The notes under the pieces are model-generated. The model had not been told where the DNA came from. It was given only the letters and a program-made list of their open reading frames with translations, and ran no database searches. A stretch of DNA of 32,000 nucleotides from an archaeon (GTDB lineage: Archaea > Iainarchaeota > Iainarchaeia > Iainarchaeales > CSSED10-239), in contig DAOMZT010000004.1 of NCBI GenBank assembly GCA_035400625.1, positions 1-32,000 of the forward strand, given 5' to 3'. Below are positions 1 through 29,692 of this stretch, one piece after another. Within the stretch, counting starts at the first letter, position 1, and every line of letters starts with the position of its first letter. The position numbers and the translations under genes are program-made.

Positions 1-2498
1 GTACGTGGGTTCTGGGTAGAGTTATCACTCCATTTTACAAAATGATAGCTACTATTTGGAATGGCAGTAACAGGCGTGCCATTACCGCCTTTTACAACAG
101 TCTGAGTAGTGGTACCTGAAAGAGTACCACCACTACCTGAAGTGTATTTTAGAGTATAAGTGGTTGAAGAAACTTGATAAGTCCCGATTACTGTCTCAGA
201 AAGTCCAGAAAATTTATTTTTAACACTAATATTAAAATCATAATCTCCTGCAACTAATGAAGAGCCAGAAGTAATTTGTACTGGAATACTAACACTACTA
301 CCTGGAATTATAGAGATTTCTGGAATTGGTGTTATTGTAAAACCTGATGGTAGAGAACTAGCAGAAATCAAAAAATCACTAGTTGAACAAACACTAACAT
401 CTCTATTTGTTACATTTAAATTGTATGTTAAGGTGTCACCTAAATTGCCTGCTTGACTTTTAGGAGTTATTGTGACAACAGGTTTTTTTCTTGTACAACT
501 TGGCATTGATAATGTTATGCTTGCATCAAAAGTTGTGTATGACAATCCAGAAGACATATCTGTAACCAGAACATTAAATTCGTATCTTCCTTCAAGCGAA
601 GGATCAGTTGTAATTTGTACAGGTATAGTCACCATTTCTCCAGGATAAAATGACCTTGTAGGGATAGGAGTTGTTGTAAACCCTGTTGGCAAATTAAAAT
701 TAAAATTAAAATCACTATTTGAACACATACTGTTATTTTTATTTAATACATTTAAATTATATGAAAATGTATTCCCCGCAACCCCTACTAGACTCCTAGG
801 CAAACTAAAATATGCATGTGGCTTATATTTCACACACTCTTGATAATTATCATTTAAATCTACATAAACCGTTGCTGTGCTTTTTGTTTTTTCCATTAAT
901 GTAATTTGAATACCAGTATAAGGATCTGTAAATGTTTGATTAACTAAAAAAGGAGCATCATTAGCAGTTTCTGTTGATGGTACTGCATCAAGCAAATAAG
1001 TTTTTTCATAAACATTATTCTCAGGCCCTAATCTTATCATTATTCCATTTACAGCAGGACTTGTAGTTGAATAATTATCAAACACATCGTGAGGCTCTCT
1101 ATAATCAACATAAATTTGCCTTTTTTGTAAATTTGGATAATTTGGCCTGTATATTTTTAAAAGCTGAGGATTTGTTGTAGGGTTCTCTATAGAAGAAATG
1201 GTATATGTTCCTGTTTGAGTAACTGTTATCATATTCTGATATGGAATAAACTGTGTATTTCCAAAACCTGTTTTAAAAAAAGCATTAAAATGTCTTCTTC
1301 CAGTTGAAGAGCCCATGGTGTCAAAAACATCTCCATACTCTTTATAAGTACATGATTCTGACAATGTCACATATTCATCTCCACTTTTACACCTATATAA
1401 ACTTGCATGACTTAAACCAAAATTATGACCCAATTCATGGTTTACATAGCCACTTTTTAATTCTTCATACCAGGATTTTTTATCTAAAACAGCAGCACTT
1501 GCTTTTCCAGGGCAACTTGTTGATGATCTTACAACATATAATACATAATCATAATTATTATATCTAAAACCATTTACCGTCGCTAATTGATTAGCTTTAT
1601 TCGCCCATTCTGCTTTTTTACAAGGATAATTATCATATGGCAAAGTATAATAGCCAAAGACGTCTCCATTTGTGTTAATATCTCCAATAAATTCTACTTG
1701 ATTGAAACTTACATCTTTAATATATGCGTTTGCAGATAAGGGTCCTGTAAAAACAATCTCTCTTACTTGTTCATGAGTCAAAGGCGGGTCATCTTGAACA
1801 TTTGCAAAATTAAGTAAAATAACTGCAACTTTTCTACTATCTATTGTTGTAGGTGTAGAATTTGTTTGTGCAGGTAAATTAAAATTATCTGGCTCATCTA
1901 AAATATCTACTGACTCATCATCTTCATCTATTAATAATATATCTTTAACTTGCACACCTTTTATTCTTACACTTGTTTTTGGTAAGAATTCATAATCTTC
2001 TATTGAACGTAGCTTAAAACTTTCCTGTTTATCAGTAATGACAAAACTCTCTTCTTCAAAATAGCCCTCTTCAAAGTAATCTGCATGATTAATTTCTATA
2101 GTCCCTTCAATATCTATTGGCTCTTCTATAAACTCTTTAAGCTCCTCTGGTATTTCCGAAATTAAATCATAATCAAGAATTTGCTTTTTTGCTTCTGTTA
2201 TATTTTTTTCTTCTAAAAGTTCATAAATTTTATTTTGTCTCTCTTCTGCAATATTTATTAAGTTGCTAACAATTTCTGGCTTTTCGGTCTCTGATGCATT
2301 TTCATAAATTTCTTTTGCATCTATTATTGTTTTTGTCATTTCAACTAAATCTGTTGGTATTTGAGAAGGCAAAACATTATCTGCTTGCCCTTTTTTTATT
2401 GAGTATCTTGATTGAAATAACATTAGAAATACAACTATAACTAAAATAAGTATCACTATAAACCAAAAAACTTTATTTTTATCTATTTTCTTTTTCAT
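1..2498 (-). CDS. Secreted or membrane-anchored zinc metalloprotease (metzincin, gametolysin/M11-like) with C-terminal Ig-like repeats; the C-terminus runs off the window
   Basis: Absent from the ORF track because it is open to the window edge. Hand translation of the minus strand from ATG at 2498 gives MKKKIDKNKVFWFIVILILVIVVFLMLF (N-terminal TM/signal anchor), then GYVNHELGHNFGLSHA (HExxHxxGxxH, nt 1407-1439), then YKEYGDVFDTMGS. Two tandem ~105-aa Ig/CARDB-like repeats follow (nt ~175-830), then ...SSYHFVKWSDNSTQNP, which resembles an InlB B-repeat module. The frame was spot-checked at several points and has no stop down to nt 3. Confidence 0.85.
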   Translation of the reverse strand, partial: MKKKIDKNKVFWFIVILILVIVVFLMLFQSRYSIKKGQADNVLPSQIPTDLVEMTKTIIDAKEIYENASETEKPEIVSNLINIAEERQNKIYELLEEKNITEAKKQILDYDLISEIPEELKEFIEEPIDIEGTIEINHADYFEEGYFEEESFVITDKQESFKLRSIEDYEFLPKTSVRIKGVQVKDILLIDEDDESVDILDEPDNFNLPAQTNSTPTTIDSRKVAVILLNFANVQDDPPLTHEQVREIVFTGPLSANAYIKDVSFNQVEFIGDINTNGDVFGYYTLPYDNYPCKKAEWANKANQLATVNGFRYNNYDYVLYVVRSSTSCPGKASAAVLDKKSWYEELKSGYVNHELGHNFGLSHASLYRCKSGDEYVTLSESCTYKEYGDVFDTMGSSTGRRHFNAFFKTGFGNTQFIPYQNMITVTQTGTYTISSIENPTTNPQLLKIYRPNYPNLQKRQIYVDYREPHDVFDNYSTTSPAVNGIMIRLGPENNVYEKTYLLDAVPSTETANDAPFLVNQTFTDPYTGIQITLMEKTKSTATVYVDLNDNYQECVKYKPHAYFSLPRSLVGVAGNTFSYNLNVLNKNNSMCSNSDFNFNFNLPTGFTTTPIPTRSFYPGEMVTIPVQITTDPSLEGRYEFNVLVTDMSSGLSYTTFDASITLSMPSCTRKKPVVTITPKSQAGNLGDTLTYNLNVTNRDVSVCSTSDFLISASSLPSGFTITPIPEISIIPGSSVSIPVQITSGSSLVAGDYDFNISVKNKFSGLSETVIGTYQVSSTTYTLKYTSGSGGTLSGTTTQTVVKGGNGTPVTAIPNSSYHFVKWSDNSTQNPR
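175..830 (-). repeat. Two tandem ~320-nt diverged coding repeats (Ig-like domain duplication) inside the protease gene
   Basis: The peptides ...GNTFSYNLNVLNKNNSMCSNSDFNFNFNLPTGFTTTPIPTRSFYPGEMVTIPVQITT... and ...GDTLTYNLNVTNRDVSVCSTSDFLISASSLPSGFTITPIPEISIIPGSSVSIPVQITS... align colinearly. The DNA similarity is visible by eye, e.g. gtaatttgtac(t/a)gg at ~270 and ~612. Confidence 0.7.
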
Positions 2499-2593
2499 GG
2501 TTAAAGCCAAAAACTATTTACTAAATAAAGGAAACAAATTATATTTAATTATATCTATTTGGTCATTCCAAAATTATTTTTTATTAGAATAAG

Positions 2594-12439: not shown

Positions 12440-13107
12440 ACGAAAAATTTAATAAAAATATATTTATTGCAGCAATATTAATTGTTCTGATCGTATTTAT
12501 TGTTGGATTTTTCACCATCACAATATATGATAATAAAAAAAGAACAGGGCTTATGGATGAATTTAATATACTTAACCAACAGACTGGATTAGATGAAATA
12601 TATGAAATCTATTTAAAAGAAAATCCAGAGAAGAAATGTGAAATATTAAAAAGCCAACTAAATTCTATGTTAAATACAAATAATAAATTATATATTAAAC
12701 TTAAACAATATAATGAAAATGCAATAGTAAGCACAGACAATGTAATAAAATACCAATTTGTGATAACAAACATTAAATTATGGTTACAATACAATAAATT
12801 AAAGGATGAATGTGATTCAAACATCAATGTTATGCTTTATTTCTATCCAGAAATCTTTGAAGACACACCAAAAAAATCAGAATTAGACGCAAAAACAATA
12901 ATCTTTGAAAACAAATTAAGAAGCATAATGACAAATTGCGACTATTTGTCTATTGCTTTACCAGATAAAAGTGATATAGAAATTATAAACCTTATAAAAC
13001 AGGAATATTCTATTATTGATTCGCCATCAGCTTTAATAAATGGCAAAGTTTATTATAATTTAGATTTAACAACTGACTTTTATGAAGAAATAAACTGTAA
13101 GGAATAA
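12424..13107 (+). CDS. Hypothetical N-terminally membrane-anchored protein
   Basis: Single TM IFIAAILIVLIVFIVGFFTITIY, then a ~190-aa domain with 4 Cys. It overlaps the upstream GT2 gene by 16 nt and ends 2 nt before the next GT2. I recognise no family. Confidence 0.55.
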   Translation: MGKELNEKFNKNIFIAAILIVLIVFIVGFFTITIYDNKKRTGLMDEFNILNQQTGLDEIYEIYLKENPEKKCEILKSQLNSMLNTNNKLYIKLKQYNENAIVSTDNVIKYQFVITNIKLWLQYNKLKDECDSNINVMLYFYPEIFEDTPKKSELDAKTIIFENKLRSIMTNCDYLSIALPDKSDIEIINLIKQEYSIIDSPSALINGKVYYNLDLTTDFYEEINCKE

Positions 13108-13109
13108 AT

Positions 13110-13850
13110 ATGAAAATACTAATAACAATACCATGCTATAACGAAGGAAGAAAACTAGAAAAAAACATAACTAAACTTAATAACTTTCTTTCTAAAAACC
13201 TTAAAGAACCATACTTGATTGATATTGCAGACAATAACTCCAAAGACAACACTAAAGATATTGCAAAAAAACTAGAGAAGAAATATCCTACAGTAAAATA
13301 TACTTTTGTCAAAGAACAAGGAAAAGGATTAGCTATCAAGTATTCTTGGAATAATACCGGCAAAGACTATGATGTCTTGTCCTTTATGGATGCTGATCTT
13401 GCAACAGGAATAGATGCTTTCCCTGGAATGATAAAAAAGATAACTAAAGATAACTATGATTTAGTCTACGGGAGTAGATATCATCCTAAATCTAACACCA
13501 AAAGGACCATTGGAAGATATATAATAAGCAAGGGCTATCTTTTTCTACAAAAGATAATACTAGGTACTTCTTTTACAGATACACAATGTGGCTTTAAAGC
13601 CATAAAGAAAAAAGCATATTTCCAGATAAAAGACCTTTTCTTGAAGAAAAGACTTTCTGGAGACAAGAACAATATGTTCTTTGATACTGAGCTTCTGGTT
13701 TTAGCAAAATACAAGGGACAAAAGATTATTGATTATCCTGTTACTTGGAAAGAACAAAAAGAAACAAGCGTTAAGATCTTTAAGTACTCTATTCTTTTCT
13801 TAAGATATCTTTTCTATTTTAGAAAAGAAATAAAAAGAAAAAAAAACTAA
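13110..13850 (+). CDS. Family-2 glycosyltransferase, dolichyl/polyprenyl-phosphate sugar synthase-like (Dpm1/GtrB/AglK-like)
   Basis: The N-terminal ITIPCYNEG, the DxD-like FMDADL and the downstream TDTQCGFKA are typical of Dpm1/GtrB-type GT2 enzymes. Confidence 0.82.
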   Translation: MKILITIPCYNEGRKLEKNITKLNNFLSKNLKEPYLIDIADNNSKDNTKDIAKKLEKKYPTVKYTFVKEQGKGLAIKYSWNNTGKDYDVLSFMDADLATGIDAFPGMIKKITKDNYDLVYGSRYHPKSNTKRTIGRYIISKGYLFLQKIILGTSFTDTQCGFKAIKKKAYFQIKDLFLKKRLSGDKNNMFFDTELLVLAKYKGQKIIDYPVTWKEQKETSVKIFKYSILFLRYLFYFRKEIKRKKN

Positions 13851-16420
13851 TTTTTTGCTTTTGCTTTTTCTAAAAAATTTGTTATTGGGATAATGATAAA
13901 AGAAAACAAACTAAATGCCAAAACCATTAACCAATCTTTTAAAGATAAAGCCACAACATTAAAAGCATCTTGCATAAATGGATTGTATATTAAAAACACA
14001 TGTAATGCCAAAACTAAAATAATGCTTACAATTAACATGTTGTTTGAGAATAGCTTCTTTAATTTAAAAGAACCTTCAGAATTACAAGCAAATGCAAAGA
14101 TTAGTTCAAAGAAAACAATGCCTGTTAGTAATAAAGTCCTAGCATAAGATGGCTGACTAATATCAAAAGTATTGATACCCAAACTTGCATCAATATGAAG
14201 ACCATAAGAAAACAAGATTATTTCCCCTATTATCTTAACAACCAAAGCAACAATAATAAAAGTTGTAAAAGACTTAAAGGCATTACCATCTTGCTTGTTT
14301 GGCTTTCTTAACATTATATCTTTTGTTGCTGGTTTTCTACCTAGAGCAATTGCAGGCAAAGAGTCTGTTACAAGATTAATCCAAAGTATCTGTAATGCTA
14401 GTAAAGGTATAGGGAAAGCCAGAATTGCAAGTATTGCTACAATAATTAATAAATCAAAATTTACTGCAAGCATATACTTGACAAACAACAAAATATTGTC
14501 ATATATTCTCCTACCCTCCTTAATTGCAGAAATTATGCTTGAGTAATTGTCGTCTTTTAGGACAACATCAGCAACCTCTTTAGTGGCTTCTGTTCCTTTG
14601 ATACCCATGGCTATGCCAATATCTGCTTTCTTTAAAGCAGGAGCATCATTAACGCCATCACCTGTTACTGCTACAACTTCTCCTGATTTTTGTAAAAGAT
14701 CAACTATTCTGTATTTGTGATTTGGCTTTGCTCTTGCAAAGATGTCTGTTTTATAGATTAATTCTGTTGCCTCTTTATCAGACATAGAATCCAAAACATT
14801 AGCAGAAACTGCTTGAGGATTTTTAAAACCTATTTTTTCTGCTATGGCTTTAGCAGTTAATGGATTATCGCCAGTTATAATCTTAGTAACAATCCCCGCT
14901 TTTCTTGCAATACTTAGTGCTTCTTTAATATCTGGTCGTGGCGGGTCCATCATTCCAACAATACCAACAAAAATAAAATTTTCTTCTTTTTTATCTTTAA
15001 TATTCTTTATTGGCCTATAGGCAAAAGCTAATACCCTTAGAGCCTCACAAGAATATCTTTCTTCAAAATCCTTAAATTTTTTAATGTCTCTTTCAGTTAT
15101 ATTTCTTACTTTGCCTTTTTCTAAAACCCTATCACATTTGTTTATGACTTCTTCAAATGCGCCTTTTGTAAAAATCTCATAACTTCCTTCTATCTCATGA
15201 ATCGTTGACATCATTTGTCTTTGAGAAGAAAAAGGGATCTCATCTATAAATTTGTAATTGTTTGTTATTTGGGCTTTTTTTGCTAGTATCTTTAAAGCAA
15301 TCTCTGTAGGGTCTCCAAAGATTTGTTTTTCAATTTCTGCATTGTTACAGTTGTTTGCAATATCTATGAGCTTATGTGCATCAATATTATCAATTTCTTC
15401 TATATCTGTAGAGTGATAACCAGAACTTAATATTTCTTTTTCATAATTGAAAGTATAAACTTTCTCAACATTCATTTCATTTAAAGTAAGAGTGCCTGTC
15501 TTGTCTGAGCAAATAACTGTTGTTGCACCAAGTGTTTCTATTGAACTTAATTTCTTAACAATTGCGTTCTTTTTAAACATTAATTGCACGCCACTTGCTA
15601 AAGTAAGAGTCATAACTATTGGTAAGCCCTCAGGTATTGCTGAAATTGCAAGAGAAACAGAAATTAAAAAAATAGCTAATACTCCTTCTCCTCTTAACAG
15701 CCCCAAAACAAAAATAATCACAAAACTTACTATAAGGATATATATTAAAATCTTAGATAGCTTATCTATCTGAACAGAAAGATGAGTCTTTACATTTTCT
15801 TCTTTTGAAACAAGATTTACAATCTTTCCAAACTCTGTGTTTATTCCTGTTTTTTCAACAATTGCTAGACCTTTGCCACTCGCTATTGTGGTTCCAGAAA
15901 ATAATTTGTTTTTACCTTCCTCTTTACTTGTAATATCTTTTGAAACAGGAACGCTTTCTCCACTTAAGACCGACTCATCAACAACTAAAGAATAATTTTC
16001 AAGAATTTTTAGGTCTGCAGGAACCTTATCACCCTCATACACATAAACTATATCTCCTGGAACCAAGTCTTCAGAATTAATTTCTTGTTTTTTACCATCT
16101 CTAAGAACAAGAGTTGTTTTTACTAGCATTTTCTTTAAAGAATCAACAGCTCTGTCTGCTTTATATTCTTGAGCAAAACCTATTAGGCCATTAACCACTA
16201 TAATAATAAGAACCAAAACAAACTCTAGGGTATCTCCCATAAACAAAAAAATAAAAGCACATATCAAAAGAATAATAATAATTAATGATGTAAACTGGGA
16301 AATGAGTATCTTAAGAACTGTATTTTCTTTTTTAACCTCTATTTTATTATGCCCATATTTTTTAATAAGAAGCTCTGCTTCTGAAGTGGTCAAGCCATTA
16401 TTTATATTTGTTTGTTGCAT
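13847..16420 (-). CDS. P-type cation-transporting ATPase, P2 (SERCA/PMCA-like Ca2+-type)
   Basis: CSDKTGTLT phosphorylation site, TM4 AIPEGLP, ITGDNPLTA, TGDGVNDAPALKKADIGIAMG and TM6 NLVTDSLPA. Its stop overlaps the stop of the convergent GT2 gene. Confidence 0.93.
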   Translation of the reverse strand: MQQTNINNGLTTSEAELLIKKYGHNKIEVKKENTVLKILISQFTSLIIIILLICAFIFLFMGDTLEFVLVLIIIVVNGLIGFAQEYKADRAVDSLKKMLVKTTLVLRDGKKQEINSEDLVPGDIVYVYEGDKVPADLKILENYSLVVDESVLSGESVPVSKDITSKEEGKNKLFSGTTIASGKGLAIVEKTGINTEFGKIVNLVSKEENVKTHLSVQIDKLSKILIYILIVSFVIIFVLGLLRGEGVLAIFLISVSLAISAIPEGLPIVMTLTLASGVQLMFKKNAIVKKLSSIETLGATTVICSDKTGTLTLNEMNVEKVYTFNYEKEILSSGYHSTDIEEIDNIDAHKLIDIANNCNNAEIEKQIFGDPTEIALKILAKKAQITNNYKFIDEIPFSSQRQMMSTIHEIEGSYEIFTKGAFEEVINKCDRVLEKGKVRNITERDIKKFKDFEERYSCEALRVLAFAYRPIKNIKDKKEENFIFVGIVGMMDPPRPDIKEALSIARKAGIVTKIITGDNPLTAKAIAEKIGFKNPQAVSANVLDSMSDKEATELIYKTDIFARAKPNHKYRIVDLLQKSGEVVAVTGDGVNDAPALKKADIGIAMGIKGTEATKEVADVVLKDDNYSSIISAIKEGRRIYDNILLFVKYMLAVNFDLLIIVAILAILAFPIPLLALQILWINLVTDSLPAIALGRKPATKDIMLRKPNKQDGNAFKSFTTFIIVALVVKIIGEIILFSYGLHIDASLGINTFDISQPSYARTLLLTGIVFFELIFAFACNSEGSFKLKKLFSNNMLIVSIILVLALHVFLIYNPFMQDAFNVVALSLKDWLMVLAFSLFSFIIIPITNFLEKAKAKN

Positions 16421-16486: not shown

Positions 16487-17113
16487 ATGATAAAACTAAT
16501 AATATTTGATTTGTGGAAAACTTTAGCATACAGAGATGTAAATTATAGTAGTACTACAAAAATGCTTGAAGTTACAAAAGCGGATATCCCTAAAGATAAA
16601 TTTGTAAAAATGTTTGAAGAATCATTACAAACTAAAAGATGGAGAAAAGAATATCTTGCATATAAGTTGCTTTGTAAGAACATGGGACTTAAGACAACAA
16701 AAGAAAATATAGAATTATTAATGAAAATTAGAAAAGATGCTGAAAAGAAAACTAAGTTATATGATCACAGCATAAAATTATTAAAACAACTTAGAGAGCA
16801 AGGGTATAAAACTGCATTAATATCTAACGCTAGTGTTTTTGCAATAAAGGAAATTAAAAAAACTAAGCTTTTAGATTATATTGATTATCCTATATTCTCG
16901 TTTAATGTTGGAGTCATTAAACCAAATAAAAAGATATATCTGGAAGCACTAAAAACAGCTAAATGTAAGCCACAAGAAGCATTAATGATTGGAGACAAAC
17001 TTATTGATGATGTGTTACCTCCAAGAAAATTAGGAATGAATGCTTTACATTATAAAGGGAACTACGAAGAACTTAAAAAAGGGCTAAAGAAATTTAAGAT
17101 AATTGTAAAATAA
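16487..17113 (+). CDS. HAD-superfamily hydrolase (subfamily IA-like)
   Basis: Motif I IIFDLWKTL, motif II ALISNAS and motif IV MIGDKLIDDV. AGGAGG lies upstream of the ATG. Confidence 0.78.
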   Translation: MIKLIIFDLWKTLAYRDVNYSSTTKMLEVTKADIPKDKFVKMFEESLQTKRWRKEYLAYKLLCKNMGLKTTKENIELLMKIRKDAEKKTKLYDHSIKLLKQLREQGYKTALISNASVFAIKEIKKTKLLDYIDYPIFSFNVGVIKPNKKIYLEALKTAKCKPQEALMIGDKLIDDVLPPRKLGMNALHYKGNYEELKKGLKKFKIIVK

Positions 17114-23714: not shown

Positions 23715-24482
23715 CTACTTTTTCTTTGCAGGAGTAGCACCCTTACCTGCTGGAGCAGCACCCTTACCTGCTGGAGCAGCACCCTTACCTGCTGGAGTAG
23801 CACCCTTACCTGCTGGAGCAGCACCCTTGCCTGCTGGAGCTGCACCCTTGCCTGCTGGAGCAACAACTGCTTCTGCTTCTTTAGCAGCAGCTTCTGCTTC
23901 TTTAGCTTTTGCTCTTCTTTTTCTTACAGTTCCAACTGACTTTAAGTTGCTCTTGTTCTTTTCAACAATAACTTTCATTTTACATGGAAACTTAGAATCC
24001 ATTCTCTCAAATAATTCTTTAACCATTTTTACATTTGCTTCATCAACAAGAACACTATAGATCTTCTGACCTTTTCTTACTCTTGATGCCCTTCCAACAA
24101 CCTTACCAAAAGGACATTGACTCATTCCTGTTTGAATTCTATCAGCGTGTGCACCTTGTGCTTGTTTATTTTCTCTTAAGAAAAATTGAGGATAAACTCT
24201 TACTTTCATATAATAGTTTGTAGCAGTTAATTTCTTGTTTAGTTGTCTTACAACACTTTGTCTTACTGCTTCAATAGCATTATCCCTAATCTGTACTTTA
24301 TCCATAGTTACATAGTGTACAACATGAGTATATTCTCTAGTTCCTGTACCCATATGGAACTGTCTAATCCTCATTCCAGGTACACCACCAACAAAATTCT
24401 TTTTATGAACCTTTACTGCCACTCTTGTGTATGCTCTTTTGTTTACTTTTGGACAATAACAATGTCCTGGTCTTAATCCCAT
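23715..24482 (-). CDS. rpl10e: Ribosomal protein L10e (uL16) with a ~75-aa repetitive Ala/Pro/Gly/Lys C-terminal extension
   Basis: MGLRPGHCYCPKVNKRAYTRV...RIRQFHMG...QGAHADRIQTGM... is diagnostic of L10e. GGTGA lies upstream of the ATG. The tail is KEAEAAAKEAEAVV(APAGKGA)n...PAKKK. Confidence 0.93.
   Translation of the reverse strand: MGLRPGHCYCPKVNKRAYTRVAVKVHKKNFVGGVPGMRIRQFHMGTGTREYTHVVHYVTMDKVQIRDNAIEAVRQSVVRQLNKKLTATNYYMKVRVYPQFFLRENKQAQGAHADRIQTGMSQCPFGKVVGRASRVRKGQKIYSVLVDEANVKMVKELFERMDSKFPCKMKVIVEKNKSNLKSVGTVRKRRAKAKEAEAAAKEAEAVVAPAGKGAAPAGKGAAPAGKGATPAGKGAAPAGKGAAPAGKGATPAKKK
23727..23861 (-). repeat. Six full units plus one partial unit of a 21-nt tandem repeat, in frame in the 3' end of rpl10e
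   Basis: Unit agcacccttacctgctggagc at 23736, 23757, 23778, 23799, 23820 and 23841, with only 1-2 substitutions per unit. It encodes xPAGKGA heptads. An adjacent 18-nt duplication (gcttctgcttctttagca, ~23868-23903) encodes KEAEAA. Confidence 0.9.
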
Positions 24483-24699
24483 TTTATTTCACCTTTATTA
24501 AAAAAATAGATAAAATTGTCGAAATTTATCTTTGCTATATATAAATATATTTATATAGAAACATATTTAAATAAAACATTTTAATAAATTTTAAAAAACT
24601 AGAATCTAGAAAGGAAAAAGAGAGCCTTAAAAAAAGACCCCCTTTCTCTTTATCATTTCTTTTGGGGAAAGAAAAGTTTTTGGGGTAAAATACCTCAAA

Positions 24700-24736
24700 A
24701 ATATAATATAAGAAAGAAAAGAACAGGGACCTGTTC
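24700..24736 (-). terminator. Hairpin plus T-tract (intrinsic-terminator-like) oriented for minus-strand transcription
   Basis: A perfect 7+2+7 palindrome GAACAGG-GA-CCTGTTC at 24721-24736 is followed on the minus strand by ttttctttctt. It lies ~220 nt downstream of the DUF192 stop, inside a 470-nt gap with no convincing ORF. Confidence 0.35.
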
Positions 24737-24953
24737 TGGTAAACAGTATGTTTCTCTTCTTCCTCTTTTCTGCCTTGTATTTTATTCTTTGTGGAATTTG
24801 GTAATAGATTAACTGTATATCTTATAGCCCTAAAATCTTTATATATACTACCGGGTAGTTTTTCCAAACCTAAACAAGAAAAAGGGTTTGATTTGTGAAA
24901 TATACATAATAATTGATTTATTTTTTTGAGGTTTTTGGCTATTTTTTGTAAAT

Positions 24954-25304
24954 TTACCAATTTAGCCTATCCCCTATAGAATAAAATTTTTTACCATATT
25001 TTATAGGGAGTTCTATAATATAACGACATTTTTTCATAGGTCTAGTCATCTGCCAAGGTTTAAGCCCAAATTTGAGATCTATAATCTTCTTATTAGAATC
25101 CAAAAACAAGACATTTATTGGAAAAAACACAAAAAACATGTGTATGCTTGCACCAACTTTTGTCTCTCTTTCAAGATCAAAAATCAGACCATAATCAAAA
25201 TTCTTCTCTTTAGAAAACATCAGACCTTTAGCTCTACTAAATATATTATCTGCAATTTTATGAGATGCAATAATATTCTTTTTCTGTGAGATGTTTTTAA
25301 TCAT
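24954..25304 (-). CDS. DUF192 (COG1430) family protein
   Basis: Matches the family pattern RAKGLMFSKE...GLIFDL....SIHMFFVFFPINVLFLDSNKKIIDL...YIIELP...GD. Confidence 0.7.
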   Translation of the reverse strand: MIKNISQKKNIIASHKIADNIFSRAKGLMFSKEKNFDYGLIFDLERETKVGASIHMFFVFFPINVLFLDSNKKIIDLKFGLKPWQMTRPMKKCRYIIELPIKYGKKFYSIGDRLNW

Positions 25305-25375
25305 ATTAAATCCTTACATTTTAATTATAACCTCAAAATTAATAACATTATTTAATTTCCCGTTTTTTACTAATC

Positions 25376-27877
25376 TTAAATATTTAATTTTCTTAATAAT
25401 TGTTTTTTATTATTATAATAATCATTAACTATATTATTAAAATCCACACACTCATTTATTTCAGAATCAACTAACCACCAAAGTAATTTCTTGCGATTAA
25501 AAAACTCAGAAGTATTTATGGCTGATATTTCCAAATTGATTTTAAATTCAGAGTCTTCCTTTGAATAGAAGATTACATCATTGTCCTTTCCATTGCTTAT
25601 CTCTAATATCTTGGTAATTTGCAATTGTTCAATATTATTTACTTTTGTTCTTTCTAGATTTATTACAATTACTTTTCTATTAATTGCTTTTGCCTTTTCT
25701 GAATACTTTGGTAGCAAATCCTCTGTTAAACAAATCATTGAAAATTCATACCATTTAGTATCAAATAAATTTTCTGAAAAATTATCTAATATCAAATAAT
25801 CTGGTTTTTGAGAAATCATTTGAGAAATTATAGTTCTTTTATTAGAATCAATATTATCTAATAATAATCTCTTAACCCAGTTCTTATGTGGCAATTTAAT
25901 ATTGTCAAACGATTGTATGCTTGTAATTTTTTTATCAGGATAAAAATGAGCCAATGCCGAAATAAATAAATTTGCATCATCTCCAATTATTAATACTTGA
26001 TAATCCTCATCCATTGCTGTCCAAATATAAGAATAAATATCAATTATACCCACACCTAAATTTATTAGATTTACAGGTGTTAATGGTTCTTCCAAATTCT
26101 TTTTAATAACAAATGAAGACCTTTTATTGCTTTTGTCTCCTACAGAATATAACCCTTCAATTTTATAGCCATTTGGTAAATAGCCATTTATTGGTTGATC
26201 AGAACTTACTTTCAAACCCATTATTTTTGTTAAAGAAAGAATAAATTGATTTAATTTAAATAAATTATCAAATTTAAGATTTGTTTCCATTGCCCCATAT
26301 TTAAGATGATATACTATTATCGGCATATTTTCGCCAGAACAACTTACTTCTATAATATTCTTATCTTCTAAAATTATAGACAAAAAACCAAAACCTAAAA
26401 AATCCCTTTTAATAAAATTAAAATATAATTTTTTTTCTAAATCTGTTAAATCATAAGTTAATTTATCAATAGCTAAATCAAATGTTTTCTTAAGGTAATT
26501 ATTTAGATTTTGTTTATCTCCTTTATTTGAGATATAATTTGCATCAATAGAATTCAAAAAAATCTTTTTTATTTCAACATATATTTCTTCTTGAGAGTGA
26601 TTAAGCTCTGGTTGAATTACACTATATACTAGACCTTGAGACATCATATAATTTATATTAACAATAGTGAATTCGTCAATATTATATTTATCAGAGATAT
26701 TTATTTTATCAGTTTCAGATATTTGTGGTTTAACACTATAAACTTTAGTTATATTACTTGATTGCTGAACAACAGATGGTTTTTCTATAGTTTCTTTTGT
26801 AATTCTAGAAATTGCAGTTTTAGATAATGTTTTATCTCCTGAATCTTTTGGCAACATATAATCATAGGTTGTTTTGGGTAAGGCAATTGTTTGATTTGGT
26901 TTCTCTTCAATATGCGTTTTTATTTCATCACTATCAAAAACAATATCTGGAATAACAATTTCTTCAACATAATTGTCTAAATTTAGTCTTGATTTTTCTG
27001 ATTTTGCTTTCTTATGTTCTTTTTTATAATTATTAATATTATTTTCGACATTTTTGTTTGTATTGATTTTGCCATTATCTAAAACAAATGTAGGTTCCAT
27101 TATTTTTTTTCTAGGTGGTGTTTGTTCATATGTTGAATATCCTTTATTTACTACATCTGCAATATTTGTATCATCCCTAATAGAAAATATCTCAGGAACT
27201 TCAATTTCTTCAATTAATGCATAAATCTGATTAGCATTTTCTTTCTCTTCCTTATTTTGTTGTTTCCCAGAAAAGTGGGGTTCTGCTTTTTTAATCTTTT
27301 GCTGTTTTTTAACTTTTGCTTCAATGGCATCTAGCTTTGCATAAAGATTAGAAACTGCTGGCTTTTTTATTTGAATCTTTTCTATTTTTGGCTCATCGCC
27401 TAAAAAACTAATTGATTCAATAAATGGTTGTTCATCTTCTACTTTGTCTGTTTTTTCCTCAAGCGTAGCCAATAAAAAATTAATCTCGGGTGTGTCTTTT
27501 TCTACAATATTTTCTAAATCTGTTGCTGTCACTCTATCAGCAATATCTTGTAATCTGTTAGATATTACCTCCAGTCTTTTCTTTTCGATTTCCAATCTTA
27601 ATGCATTTTCAATATATTCTTTTGGAGTGATTGTTTCAATTGTGGGATAATTAGATTCTAAAATATCATTCGACTTTTCGTCTATATTACTTGATTTTTC
27701 TTCTTTTTTCTTAGATATGTTATGTAATTTTAATTTTGGGAGGGTTTTTACTTTGCTCTGATAGATATCAGGGGGTGTATTATCAATGGAAACATTAAAT
27801 TTCTTTGTAAGAGTCTTTTCTATTTTTTTTGGATTGGAATTATCATTAATCCTAGATAACTTTTTTAGTTCTACCAT
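25376..27877 (-). CDS. FlaI/ArlI/PilB-family (type IV filament/secretion ATPase) homologue lacking Walker A, Asp-box, Walker B and His-box residues, with a ~400-aa charged N-terminal extension
   Basis: Residues ~405-833 are colinear with archaeal FlaI: LVYSVIQPELNHSQEEIY, FIKRDFLGFGFLSIILEDKNIIEVSCSGENMPIIVYHLKYG, SSFVIKKNLEEPLTPVNLI, KLPHKNWV and KPDYLIL. The P-loop position reads IIGDDANLFISAL (nt 25955-25987). There is no GK[ST] anywhere in the protein. Confidence 0.8.
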   Translation of the reverse strand: MVELKKLSRINDNSNPKKIEKTLTKKFNVSIDNTPPDIYQSKVKTLPKLKLHNISKKKEEKSSNIDEKSNDILESNYPTIETITPKEYIENALRLEIEKKRLEVISNRLQDIADRVTATDLENIVEKDTPEINFLLATLEEKTDKVEDEQPFIESISFLGDEPKIEKIQIKKPAVSNLYAKLDAIEAKVKKQQKIKKAEPHFSGKQQNKEEKENANQIYALIEEIEVPEIFSIRDDTNIADVVNKGYSTYEQTPPRKKIMEPTFVLDNGKINTNKNVENNINNYKKEHKKAKSEKSRLNLDNYVEEIVIPDIVFDSDEIKTHIEEKPNQTIALPKTTYDYMLPKDSGDKTLSKTAISRITKETIEKPSVVQQSSNITKVYSVKPQISETDKINISDKYNIDEFTIVNINYMMSQGLVYSVIQPELNHSQEEIYVEIKKIFLNSIDANYISNKGDKQNLNNYLKKTFDLAIDKLTYDLTDLEKKLYFNFIKRDFLGFGFLSIILEDKNIIEVSCSGENMPIIVYHLKYGAMETNLKFDNLFKLNQFILSLTKIMGLKVSSDQPINGYLPNGYKIEGLYSVGDKSNKRSSFVIKKNLEEPLTPVNLINLGVGIIDIYSYIWTAMDEDYQVLIIGDDANLFISALAHFYPDKKITSIQSFDNIKLPHKNWVKRLLLDNIDSNKRTIISQMISQKPDYLILDNFSENLFDTKWYEFSMICLTEDLLPKYSEKAKAINRKVIVINLERTKVNNIEQLQITKILEISNGKDNDVIFYSKEDSEFKINLEISAINTSEFFNRKKLLWWLVDSEINECVDFNNIVNDYYNNKKQLLRKLNI

Positions 27878-27953
27878 ACCGATAACTGCACAAATATATT
27901 TATAGCAAATAATAAGTGCATTATATTTATAAATATATTTTAAGGCTTAAATT

Positions 27954-28688
27954 TTAAATAAAAGAAACAGCCAAATTACCTAAAAAAGAAAGCACATTAA
28001 AATAAGTAAGCGCTGCAATAACAACATAGGAAATTATTAGTATCAACACAAAAGGAACTAATGGGGAAACCCACACTTTTTCTATTTTATATTGTGTAGA
28101 CAACTTTTTTAATTCATATATTTGCTGTTCTGGAGAGCAATTTGGTCTTATTGTTATTTTAGAAACTACTTTATTATCTACTAATTTATATTCTTCTAAA
28201 GGGGTATAAAAATTAGTCAAACTATCCACATCTTTTGGAAAGCCAAAACTCATTAAGATTAAGCTTTCTCCTAATGGCTTATTTGGATAATTCCCTTTAA
28301 TTATATTGTAAATTAAAAATAAAACTGGGAAAAATAATGTTAGAACAGTAGACAATAAAAATACAAACGCAGTAAATAAAACAGAAATACCACTAACAAA
28401 ACTCATAGCCATTAAAGCAATAAGATCTCCTTCTCCAATATATGCATAAACCGTTATTTTTCCCAATACATAGATAATGGTTAAAAAAGCAAAAGAAATT
28501 GCAATCTGTAAGATGTACAGATATAAAAAGCCCTTAGCTATACCAAAAAAAACATTATATACAAAACCAATTACAGATATGATTAATAAAGGTACAATAT
28601 TTATTTCTCTGGTTTTTATATCTTGATATCCTAAAAAAATTAAACATATTAAACCTAAAAAAAACATGGGTAAAAATACAAGGTTCAT
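27954..28688 (-). CDS. Archaeal type IV prepilin/prearchaellin peptidase (A24 family, GxGD aspartyl protease; PibD/FlaK/EppA-like)
   Basis: Polytopic membrane protein carrying both catalytic-Asp contexts, LGYQDIKTREI and YIGEGDLIALMA, plus a soluble insert between the late TMs. Confidence 0.82.
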   Translation of the reverse strand: MNLVFLPMFFLGLICLIFLGYQDIKTREINIVPLLIISVIGFVYNVFFGIAKGFLYLYILQIAISFAFLTIIYVLGKITVYAYIGEGDLIALMAMSFVSGISVLFTAFVFLLSTVLTLFFPVLFLIYNIIKGNYPNKPLGESLILMSFGFPKDVDSLTNFYTPLEEYKLVDNKVVSKITIRPNCSPEQQIYELKKLSTQYKIEKVWVSPLVPFVLILIISYVVIAALTYFNVLSFLGNLAVSFI

Positions 28689-28690
28689 AT

Positions 28691-29692
28691 TTATCTCTTC
28701 TCTTCTTTTTCTTTAATATTTATTTTTTCTTCTTTTTCTTTAACTGGTTTCTTCTCTTTTGTTTTCTTCTGTTTTTTTGGTTCAATTGCAGTTTTAGTCA
28801 AATGCATTAAATCATTATATGCTTTTCTTTTTGTTATTCTTGCTGTTGATCTTTCAAATAATTGATCAGTATATTTTCCAGGCGGACCAAAAGAAATAAT
28901 TTGCTTTTTTAAAATCTTATTTAGTATTGCTTGATTTTGTAAAGTTGTATTGGTTTCATCAATTATTGATTTTGGCAAATCTATAGTCAAAACACCACTG
29001 CCTATTCTATCAACATAATCTGTACCTGAACCTGCAGTAACAAATTTTGCCATCTGCGCTAGCTTAATTGTTGCTGAAAATTTATAAACTAAATCATAAC
29101 TTTTCTGATCAATCTTTTGATTTAATTTATCTGCCATTTTTGAAATGCCTGCAACATTAAAGGCTCTGTGTTTTTGGATATACCATAAAAGATCCCTTAA
29201 TGTTTTTACAAAAAAAGAATCATACATATAATAAGTAATATAGCCCATCATTCCATTATAGCCCTCTACACCTACATTTTTTTCCTTTATAAATTTTTCT
29301 AGTCTTGATAACCCTAAAAGATAACTTGCTGAATTATTAATTAATCCAAATGGATGAGCTATCACGAAAAGATAATCCTTTCTCTCACACATGTCATAGA
29401 TTCTTCGCATTGAAACACTTTCTTCAAAGAAAACATTATAGCTATAAATATCTTCATTAGGTGCATAAACTAATACTTCTCCCAGATCTGTAGAAATGGT
29501 CATTCCAGGAATCAGAACATTTGCTTTTGGCTTTTCTTTTAACAAATCGAAATATGCTTTTTTTGGGTTTTTCTTTGCATTTTCTGTTATTGCTGTTCCA
29601 AGAAGATTATTTTTATTAACAAACTGCCAGTATCTTCTACTTGACTGTTTTCTTTTTAGAAATTGAGTGTTTAAATCTAAGTTACATATCAT
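28691..29692 (-). CDS. PHP-domain-like protein with most metal-ligand histidines substituted; Lys/Glu-rich C-terminal tail
   Basis: The PHP motif order is preserved but degenerate: DLNTQF (for DLHxHT), GTAITEN (for AITDH), IPGMTISTDLGEVLVY (for PGxEIS...H), VIAHPFG (retained), VEGYNG, and TAGSGTDYVDRIG (for GSDAH..G). The tail is KKQKKTKEKKPVKEKEEKINIKEKEEKR. This is a hand alignment of moderate certainty. Confidence 0.5.
   Translation of the reverse strand: MICNLDLNTQFLKRKQSSRRYWQFVNKNNLLGTAITENAKKNPKKAYFDLLKEKPKANVLIPGMTISTDLGEVLVYAPNEDIYSYNVFFEESVSMRRIYDMCERKDYLFVIAHPFGLINNSASYLLGLSRLEKFIKEKNVGVEGYNGMMGYITYYMYDSFFVKTLRDLLWYIQKHRAFNVAGISKMADKLNQKIDQKSYDLVYKFSATIKLAQMAKFVTAGSGTDYVDRIGSGVLTIDLPKSIIDETNTTLQNQAILNKILKKQIISFGPPGKYTDQLFERSTARITKRKAYNDLMHLTKTAIEPKKQKKTKEKKPVKEKEEKINIKEKEEKR

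Follow-up and report, generated by a model that had tools for sequence, protein, structure and literature searches.

The 32,000-nucleotide stretch of DNA analysed here (positions 1 to 32,000 of contig DAOMZT010000004.1, assembly GCA_035400625.1; hereafter the window) comes from an archaeon of the Iainarchaeota and carries, on its minus strand, a gene for an 833-residue protein (P0001) that is homologous to the archaeal type IV pilus and secretion ATPases and in which all of the catalytic motifs of these enzymes are lost. An earlier note, made from the sequence alone, had described the gene as intact, and its open reading frame (ORF) does run for 833 amino acids (aa) from an ATG start, at 25% GC. 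The protein falls into a charged N-terminal extension, a domain equivalent to the N-terminal domain (NTD) of these ATPases and a degenerate RecA-like C-terminal domain (CTD), as listed below with the evidence for each part (pLDDT, predicted local distance difference test).

25376-27877, minus strand: pseudo-ATPase ORF, 833 aa (P0001), stop codon included (ORF call, homology, orthologues).
26729-27877, minus strand: N-terminal extension, residues 1-383, charged and mostly predicted disordered, pLDDT<50 (composition, full-length model, conservation).
26075-26728, minus strand: NTD-equivalent domain, residues 384-601, the best conserved region of the protein (model, Foldseek, family alignment).
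25379-26074, minus strand: degenerate RecA-like CTD, residues 602-833, fold kept with pLDDT about 90 and catalytic motifs all lost (alignment, model).
25952-25990, minus strand: vestigial Walker A IIGDDANLFISAL, residues 630-642 (alignment, string search, model).
25898-25921, minus strand: vestigial Asp box SIQSFDNI (canonical SIEDTxEL), residues 653-660 (alignment).
25781-25801, minus strand: vestigial Walker B DYLILDN (canonical DYhhhGE), residues 693-699 (alignment).

Full-length P0001 has no Pfam match at E≤0.1, PF00437 included, which is why public records call it a 'hypothetical protein', and its homology was instead shown by phmmer against the Protein Data Bank (PDB), by NCBIfam and by structure. 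By phmmer, residues 475-699 matched A. fulgidus GspE (afGspE; 2OAP, E=6.6e-37) and residues 384-699 matched Sulfolobus FlaI (4II7/4IHQ, E about 5e-23), and the NCBIfam FlaI model NF058587 scored 107.7 bits (E=6e-31, cut-off 550). An AlphaFold2 model of residues 380-833, built from 40 aligned sequences drawn both from the family and from canonical ATPases, had a mean pLDDT of 88.5 and a predicted template modelling (TM) score of 0.86, and in a Foldseek search against the PDB its top match was again afGspE (E=1.6e-31, TM score 0.80 on the query), followed by FlaI (query TM score 0.71-0.74) and then by CpaF/TadA, VirB11, PilT and PilF. The C-terminal helical tail is likewise colinear with that of a canonical ATPase (P0022), on whose tail the Pfam model PilB3_C (PF23989) scores 25.2 bits, just under its 27-bit cut-off. 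Residues ~380-833 are thus a true homologue of archaeal secretion/pilus ATPases, with both the NTD and the RecA-like CTD folds preserved according to the model. The earlier alignment of this region to FlaI/ArlI and type IV pilus ATPases placed it in the correct family, although its nearest canonical relatives are the afGspE/PilB-type pilus ATPases rather than the archaellum motor.

Within this preserved fold, each nucleotide-binding element has been altered, as the earlier note had read from the letters and as an alignment with 23 distinct orthologues now bears out (its quoted strings are all present in P0001, with a trivial offset for Walker A, which it had put at 25955-25987). The canonical P-loop 'GETASGKTTTLNA' aligns with 'GDDAN---LFISA', so that GKT is removed by a three-residue deletion, and in the full-length model strand 627-631 passes through a very short acidic turn directly into helix 635-643. 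This shortening amounts to three residues in the focal clade and two in most other family members, and the remnant is acidic across the family (GDD or GGD, with D634 near-invariant). The Asp box reads SIQ-x-[FY]-D family-wide, the Glu-to-Gln change being found throughout; Walker B has an invariant Asp where the Gly should be and a varying residue at the position of the catalytic Glu (N/D/E/S/T/Q/V), and is followed in all members by a four-residue deletion. The His box is lost, with no aligned His in a variable region (EFSMICLTEDL, residues 711-721, in P0001), and the Arg of the linker 'TIRKF' is replaced by Lys. Neither GK[ST] nor [AG]xxxxGK occurs anywhere in P0001, and GK[ST] is absent from 23 of 23 distinct family sequences, leaving no alternative P-loop in any of them. 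From a catalytic perspective, the best reading of these alignments is that P0001 can no longer bind or hydrolyse ATP canonically. Other segments quoted in the earlier note lie at residues 661-668 (KLPHKNWV) and 596-601 (EEPLTP).

The N-terminal extension had been described as charged, free of transmembrane segments and coiled-coil-like. The first two properties hold: residues 1-383 contain 17% K+R and 17.5% D+E, and no transmembrane helix was found in P0001, in which the highest 19-residue Kyte-Doolittle mean is 1.33 (CxxC is also absent from the whole 833 aa). A single long coiled coil is not supported, most of the extension being predicted disorder interrupted by six conserved islands (residues 1-10, 93-107, 151-168, 172-188, 218-239 and 336-347). 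These islands coincide with the elements modelled with moderate confidence in the full-length prediction, i.e., a long helix at 85-115 (the helix EYIENALRLEIEKKRLEVISNRLQDIADR occupies residues 87-115), a hairpin at 152-169, a helix at 175-197 and a hairpin-helix at 264-293.

Evolutionarily, P0001 belongs to a distinct family. A search of 5.8 billion proteins returned 20 full-length relatives of 770-920 aa (39-79% identity), none of them with a Pfam domain, and a scan of GTDB species genomes returned 17 loci, all DPANN and labelled Iainarchaeum, ainarchaeum, Diapherotrites or 'archaeon', including the complete genome of Ca. Forterrea multitransposorum. HMMER, run without filters over 1.84 billion cluster representatives, gave scores of at least 398 bits to 16 full-length family representatives; below them lay a gap holding a single protein at 160 bits (P0227), and canonical ATPases reached at most 152 bits. 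In P0227 (30% identity), Walker A is likewise gone, as are the Gly-Glu of Walker B and the His of the His box, and of the Asp-box acids only the first is left (SIESKPEL). Judged from their sequences, about 25 orthologues in the Iainarchaeota/Diapherotrites carry the same lesions, and the catalytic motifs were lost before the family, and the Iainarchaeota, diversified. Because these orthologues are intact and full-length with the same substitutions, they point, as had been suggested, to a maintained gene rather than a decaying pseudogene. Mean pairwise identity in the family is 68% for the NTD, 54% for the CTD and 34% for the extension, and 57 residues are invariant in the NTD versus 33 in the CTD; catalytic members of the PilB/GspE/FlaI family show the reverse pattern, their CTD being better conserved than their NTD. 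Two further matches without a Walker A were considered and rejected as members. P0265 (610 aa), which PF00437 still recognises, is a separate and milder degenerate (Walker A GDAGTGRTS, Walker B VGD, His box TFDA), and its example indicates that catalysis may have been lost more than once in the ATPase family. P0281 (1159 aa) is a canonical archaeal ATPase of the PilB/FlaI type whose P-loop is split between GK and TT by a large intein-like insertion (C...HN), so that Walker A only seems to be missing.

The gene sits in a conserved module, of which the window holds the following parts (RBS, ribosome-binding site).

27878-27953, minus strand: intergenic region upstream of the pseudo-ATPase, 76 nt (sequence comparison).
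27954-28688, minus strand: archaeal A24 prepilin peptidase, PF01478 and PF06847 (Pfam, context).
28691-29692, minus strand: conserved protein upstream of the peptidase, 303-341 aa in Iainarchaeota loci (locus comparison).
24954-25304, minus strand: DUF192 gene, the conserved final gene of the Iainarchaeota cluster (Pfam, locus comparison).
25305-25375, minus strand: deletion scar, in which the RBS and ATG of platform gene 1 run straight into the final ~20 nt of platform gene 2 (locus alignment).

All relatives examined share one gene order: A24 prepilin peptidase, pseudo-ATPase, a T2SSF platform gene of 280 aa and a second T2SSF gene of about 375 aa, followed in Iainarchaeota loci by the DUF192 gene, and the four-gene core is present around the distant P0227 too. 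The peptidase lies directly upstream of the pseudo-ATPase at all loci examined, and in the window both of its catalytic Asp contexts are visible (YQDIK, GEGD); searches of Pfam, NCBIfam and the PDB gave no match for the conserved protein upstream of it. With an invariable length of 280 aa, the first platform protein keeps 83-84% identity between lineages in which that of the pseudo-ATPases is down to about 60-78%, so that the platform is under stronger constraint than the pseudo-ATPase and is clearly functional. The window departs from this arrangement: a PilB-family gene adjoins T2SSF genes in every relative examined, whereas here the pseudo-ATPase stop is followed by 71 nt and then the DUF192 gene, both T2SSF genes being gone. 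Compared with the closest relative, the deleted segment is about 1.97 kb, and the deletion is clean and leaves a 7-codon remnant ORF; in L009, the corresponding region is 12521-14535. It is also found in independent assemblies and in a second strain (P0145, L031), and no relocated platform copy from this species' contigs was found among 36 homologues of the 280-aa protein or in the relevant clusters. No archaellum genes were found in the window or in the related loci, and Rfam and tRNA scans of the window returned two tRNAs only, with nothing near the pseudo-ATPase gene. Next to the DUF192 gene, a publicly annotated 141-aa ORF (24535-24960, minus strand) with a TTG start and low-complexity sequence overlaps the DUF192 start; relatives have a gene-free spacer of ~470 nt at this place, Rfam finds no RNA there in the window, and the ORF is probably spurious. 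At L031, an extra 364-aa gene lies between the ATP-grasp gene and the 333-aa gene.

The 76-nt spacer between peptidase and pseudo-ATPase is conserved almost letter for letter between lineages with only ~44% protein identity. Within it are two perfect AT palindromes, ATATTTATAAATAT and AAATATATTT, and a TATAAATA element about 26 nt before the ATG, the TATA-like element ending about 20 nt before it. This placement would fit an archaeal TATA box with a leaderless or short-leader transcript and is thus compatible with the gene having its own promoter, and the spacer as a whole may be a promoter or operator (upstream regions were compared across loci, the sigma-70 scanner being unsuited to archaeal promoters).

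The same genome encodes an intact paralogue with platform genes of the TadC/FlaJ type, the two items for which the earlier note had proposed a search. At locus L018, a canonical T2SSE ATPase adjoins the pseudo-module, with an N-terminal 4Fe-4S ferredoxin domain, Walker A GNTGSGKTT and intact Asp box, Walker B and His box. In the focal organism, this ATPase has an orthologue (P0161, 593 aa), which has accessions in the same two NCBI assemblies as P0001 and shares with it the 813,239-bp contig Ga0116249_10000002, at ~452.7-454.5 kb versus ~672.7-675.2 kb, roughly 218 kb apart. The P0161 gene is followed by its own pair of half-size T2SSF genes, of 238 and 276 aa (L029, 10001-13316, about 452.7-456 kb). 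Beyond this pair lies a gene for a VTT-domain protein, and directly upstream of the P0161 gene lies one that encodes a giant protein, longer than 3311 aa and without a Pfam domain; the ferredoxin-ATPase fusion itself is widespread among the Iainarchaeota and Micrarchaeota matches. P0001 is only distantly related to this active paralogue (26% identity over 225 aa), and since its nearest canonical relatives are afGspE/PilB-like, we rejected a recent duplication of the genome's active ATPase as its origin.

How does this module compare with known systems? The best sequence and structure matches of P0001 are afGspE (2OAP) and archaeal PilB-type ATPases such as Haloferax PilB3, with which its NTD, CTD and C-terminal helical tail are colinear. 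Unlike them, it has lost Walker A, the Asp box, the Walker B Gly-Glu and the His box, has gained a disordered, charged N-terminal extension of ~380 aa, and conserves its NTD above its CTD. To FlaI/ArlI it is similar in fold, with sequence homology over residues 384-699, but the match is weaker than to afGspE, no archaellum genes lie nearby and the catalytic motifs are missing. In gene content, the module resembles the Tad (TadA-TadB-TadC) and M. maripaludis Epd (EpdL-EpdJ-EpdK, with the EppA peptidase) arrangements (PMC4371748), having one PilB-family gene, two half-size PilC paralogues and an A24 peptidase. The Tad/Epd ATPase is catalytic and required for piliation, whereas the only PilB-family member of the module described here is predicted to be catalytically dead, and the genome of the window additionally lacks the two platform genes. 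To our knowledge, all characterised type IV filament machines (pili, the type II secretion system, archaella, Tad and Com) use a catalytic PilB/GspE/FlaI hexamer on a PilC-type platform. Paralogues without catalysis are known from other P-loop NTPases, the A/V-type ATPase B subunit and F1 alpha being kept as structural or regulatory ring subunits beside a catalytic paralogue; as these belong to other families, they serve as an analogy only, and a mixed ring containing P0001 is hypothetical. The suggestion that no dead member of this family fused to such an extension had been described agrees with the searchable literature, in which we found neither a natural PilB/GspE/FlaI paralogue without a P-loop nor this family. 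Nothing on this family was found in the searchable literature on DPANN/Diapherotrites pilus ATPases and Ca. Forterrea, and Makarova et al. 2016 (PMC4858521) make no mention of inactivated ATPases or of DPANN.

We propose, with moderate confidence, that P0001 is a pseudo-enzyme derived from an archaeal PilB/GspE-type ATPase and acts as a non-catalytic docking or scaffold subunit of a Tad/Epd-like machine; that it forms a ring, contacts partners and serves as a scaffold or adaptor is what we infer from the observations above. In relatives with the complete module, the pseudo-ATPase would be the cytoplasmic partner of the A24 peptidase and of the two half-size PilC/TadB-TadC-type platform proteins, its two-domain fold presumably being kept together with the capacity to form or join a ring below the membrane platform. 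The well-conserved NTD, which would be the main functional surface, and the NTD-CTD linker may contact the platform and/or another ATPase, and the long disordered N-terminal arm, with its six conserved motifs, could recruit other partners as a multi-motif tether. Any energy required could be supplied by the genome's intact T2SSE ATPase with its ferredoxin fusion, acting in trans or as part of a mixed ring. The alternatives discussed in what follows are less well supported than this scaffold/adaptor role.

One alternative is that the dead ring inhibits the active system, by occupying a platform or by poisoning mixed hexamers and so blocking filament assembly by the active ATPase. The retained fold, together with the active paralogue in the genome, would allow such a role, and its persistence where its own platform has gone would accord with a target in the other system, but a pure inhibitor would not need a dedicated, very strongly conserved platform pair and peptidase operon across deep divergence, and we regard this explanation as unlikely.

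A different set of observations weighs against the scaffold role. No pilins with class-III signals were found by a crude motif scan of the window and of loci L009, L018, L029 and L032, and the 813-kb contig is maybe not the whole genome, so that further ATPases or platforms may lie beyond it. The pseudo-ATPase gene also bears marks of a somewhat looser constraint: its ratio of nonsynonymous to synonymous substitution rates (dN/dS) is about 2.5 times that of its housekeeping neighbours (Fisher P=0.003), and relative-rate tests on the ATPase-like region gave 41 vs 13, 40 vs 11 and 34 vs 13 changes in the focal versus the sister lineage, a 2-3-fold excess (P=1e-4 to 2e-3), while the neighbouring genes are not faster than those of L011. 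These results rest on P0006 and P0008 as outgroups; Tajima tests with P0005 are unsafe for the comparison with P0002, because P0002 is nearer to P0005 than P0001 is. At columns that are invariant in the other family members, P0001 further has substitutions of its own (G586R, V546I, Q664H), and it has lost one residue to a deletion. Given the excess of focal substitutions and the raised dN/dS, some constraint may have been relaxed after the platform was lost. Taken further, these features, together with the clean deletion of both T2SSF genes and the want of a relocated copy among the 36 homologues, would suit a relic whose function needed the deleted genes and whose ORF is intact only since too little time has elapsed.

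Within the species, the gene behaves otherwise. Between the two deletion-bearing strains, it shows 45 differences, 26.5 synonymous versus 18.5 nonsynonymous. The resulting dN/dS is 0.16 (neutrality rejected at P=2e-9), or 0.18 when computed on the ATPase-like part alone (P=6e-4). The 90% cluster contains seven alleles, each of exactly 833 aa and free of frameshifts and stops, though stops arise easily at 25% GC, and the conserved upstream intergenic element is intact. The gene is therefore under purifying selection and is not decaying despite the platform deletion, which upholds the earlier view of a maintained pseudo-ATPase and makes a relic distinctly unlikely. As the platform genes are deleted yet purifying selection persists, at least part of the function must be platform-independent, and a pseudo-ATPase that outlives its own platform probably works with the active system or the peptidase too. 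The background dN/dS excludes TrkH (L002, 3187-4620) and the HAD hydrolase (L002, 20765-21391; window 16487-17113) for their aberrant divergence: between L002 and L031, their synonymous divergence (dS) is 0.30 and 0.20, respectively, versus 0.01-0.14 for neighbours, with many amino-acid changes, which suggests recombination with a more distant lineage.

A further alternative is that P0001 works as a sensor or slow switch, its non-canonical pocket still able to bind a nucleotide or some other phosphorylated ligand and maybe to hydrolyse it. This reading would agree with the confidently modelled RecA-like CTD fold and with its invariant polar residues (K649, Q655, D658, K669, D698, K730, R743, E759), but is very unlikely given a P-loop that is acidic and three residues shorter, a Walker B with an invariant Asp for Gly and a free Glu position, the missing His box and Asp-box acids, the Lys in place of the 'TIRKF' Arg, and a CTD conserved less than the NTD.

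Elsewhere in the window, the ribosomal protein uL16/L10e gene (23715-24482) has a C-terminal tail encoded by about 6.5 copies of a 21-nt tandem repeat (7 aa, AAPAGKG) at 23727-23862, the copy number of which varies by strain, the protein being 248, 254 and 255 aa in L001, L031 and L002. An ORF of at least 837 aa (1-2520, minus strand) runs off the window start and probably encodes a large surface protein, as it has an N-terminal transmembrane or signal-like segment.

Returning to the scaffold/adaptor role, the scheme can be carried further, more tentatively and with real doubt: the Iainarchaeota and at least one more distant archaeal lineage might possess a filament-like machine with an obligately non-catalytic ring, energised in trans or in mixed hexamers by the genome's single ferredoxin-fused PilB-type ATPase, with the N-terminal arm as a multi-partner tether. 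Such sharing of a motor through a dead adaptor paralogue, if true, would have no natural precedent in the PilB/GspE/FlaI family as a pairing of catalytic with non-catalytic subunits. At the level of annotation, the family, whose members are now named 'hypothetical protein' or mis-annotated as 'flagellar protein FlaI' or 'VirB11 ATPase', deserves a model of its own. Mechanistically, a platform-plus-peptidase module with a dead ATPase-family member raises the question of how the platform is energised, or of what else it does. The filament systems of DPANN archaea are of direct interest because these organisms are believed to rely on contact between their surface and that of other cells. In the module described here, evolution has parted the structural role of the motor from its catalytic one, and the platform deletion in this species acts as a knock-out made in nature, one that shows a platform-independent role of the dead subunit.

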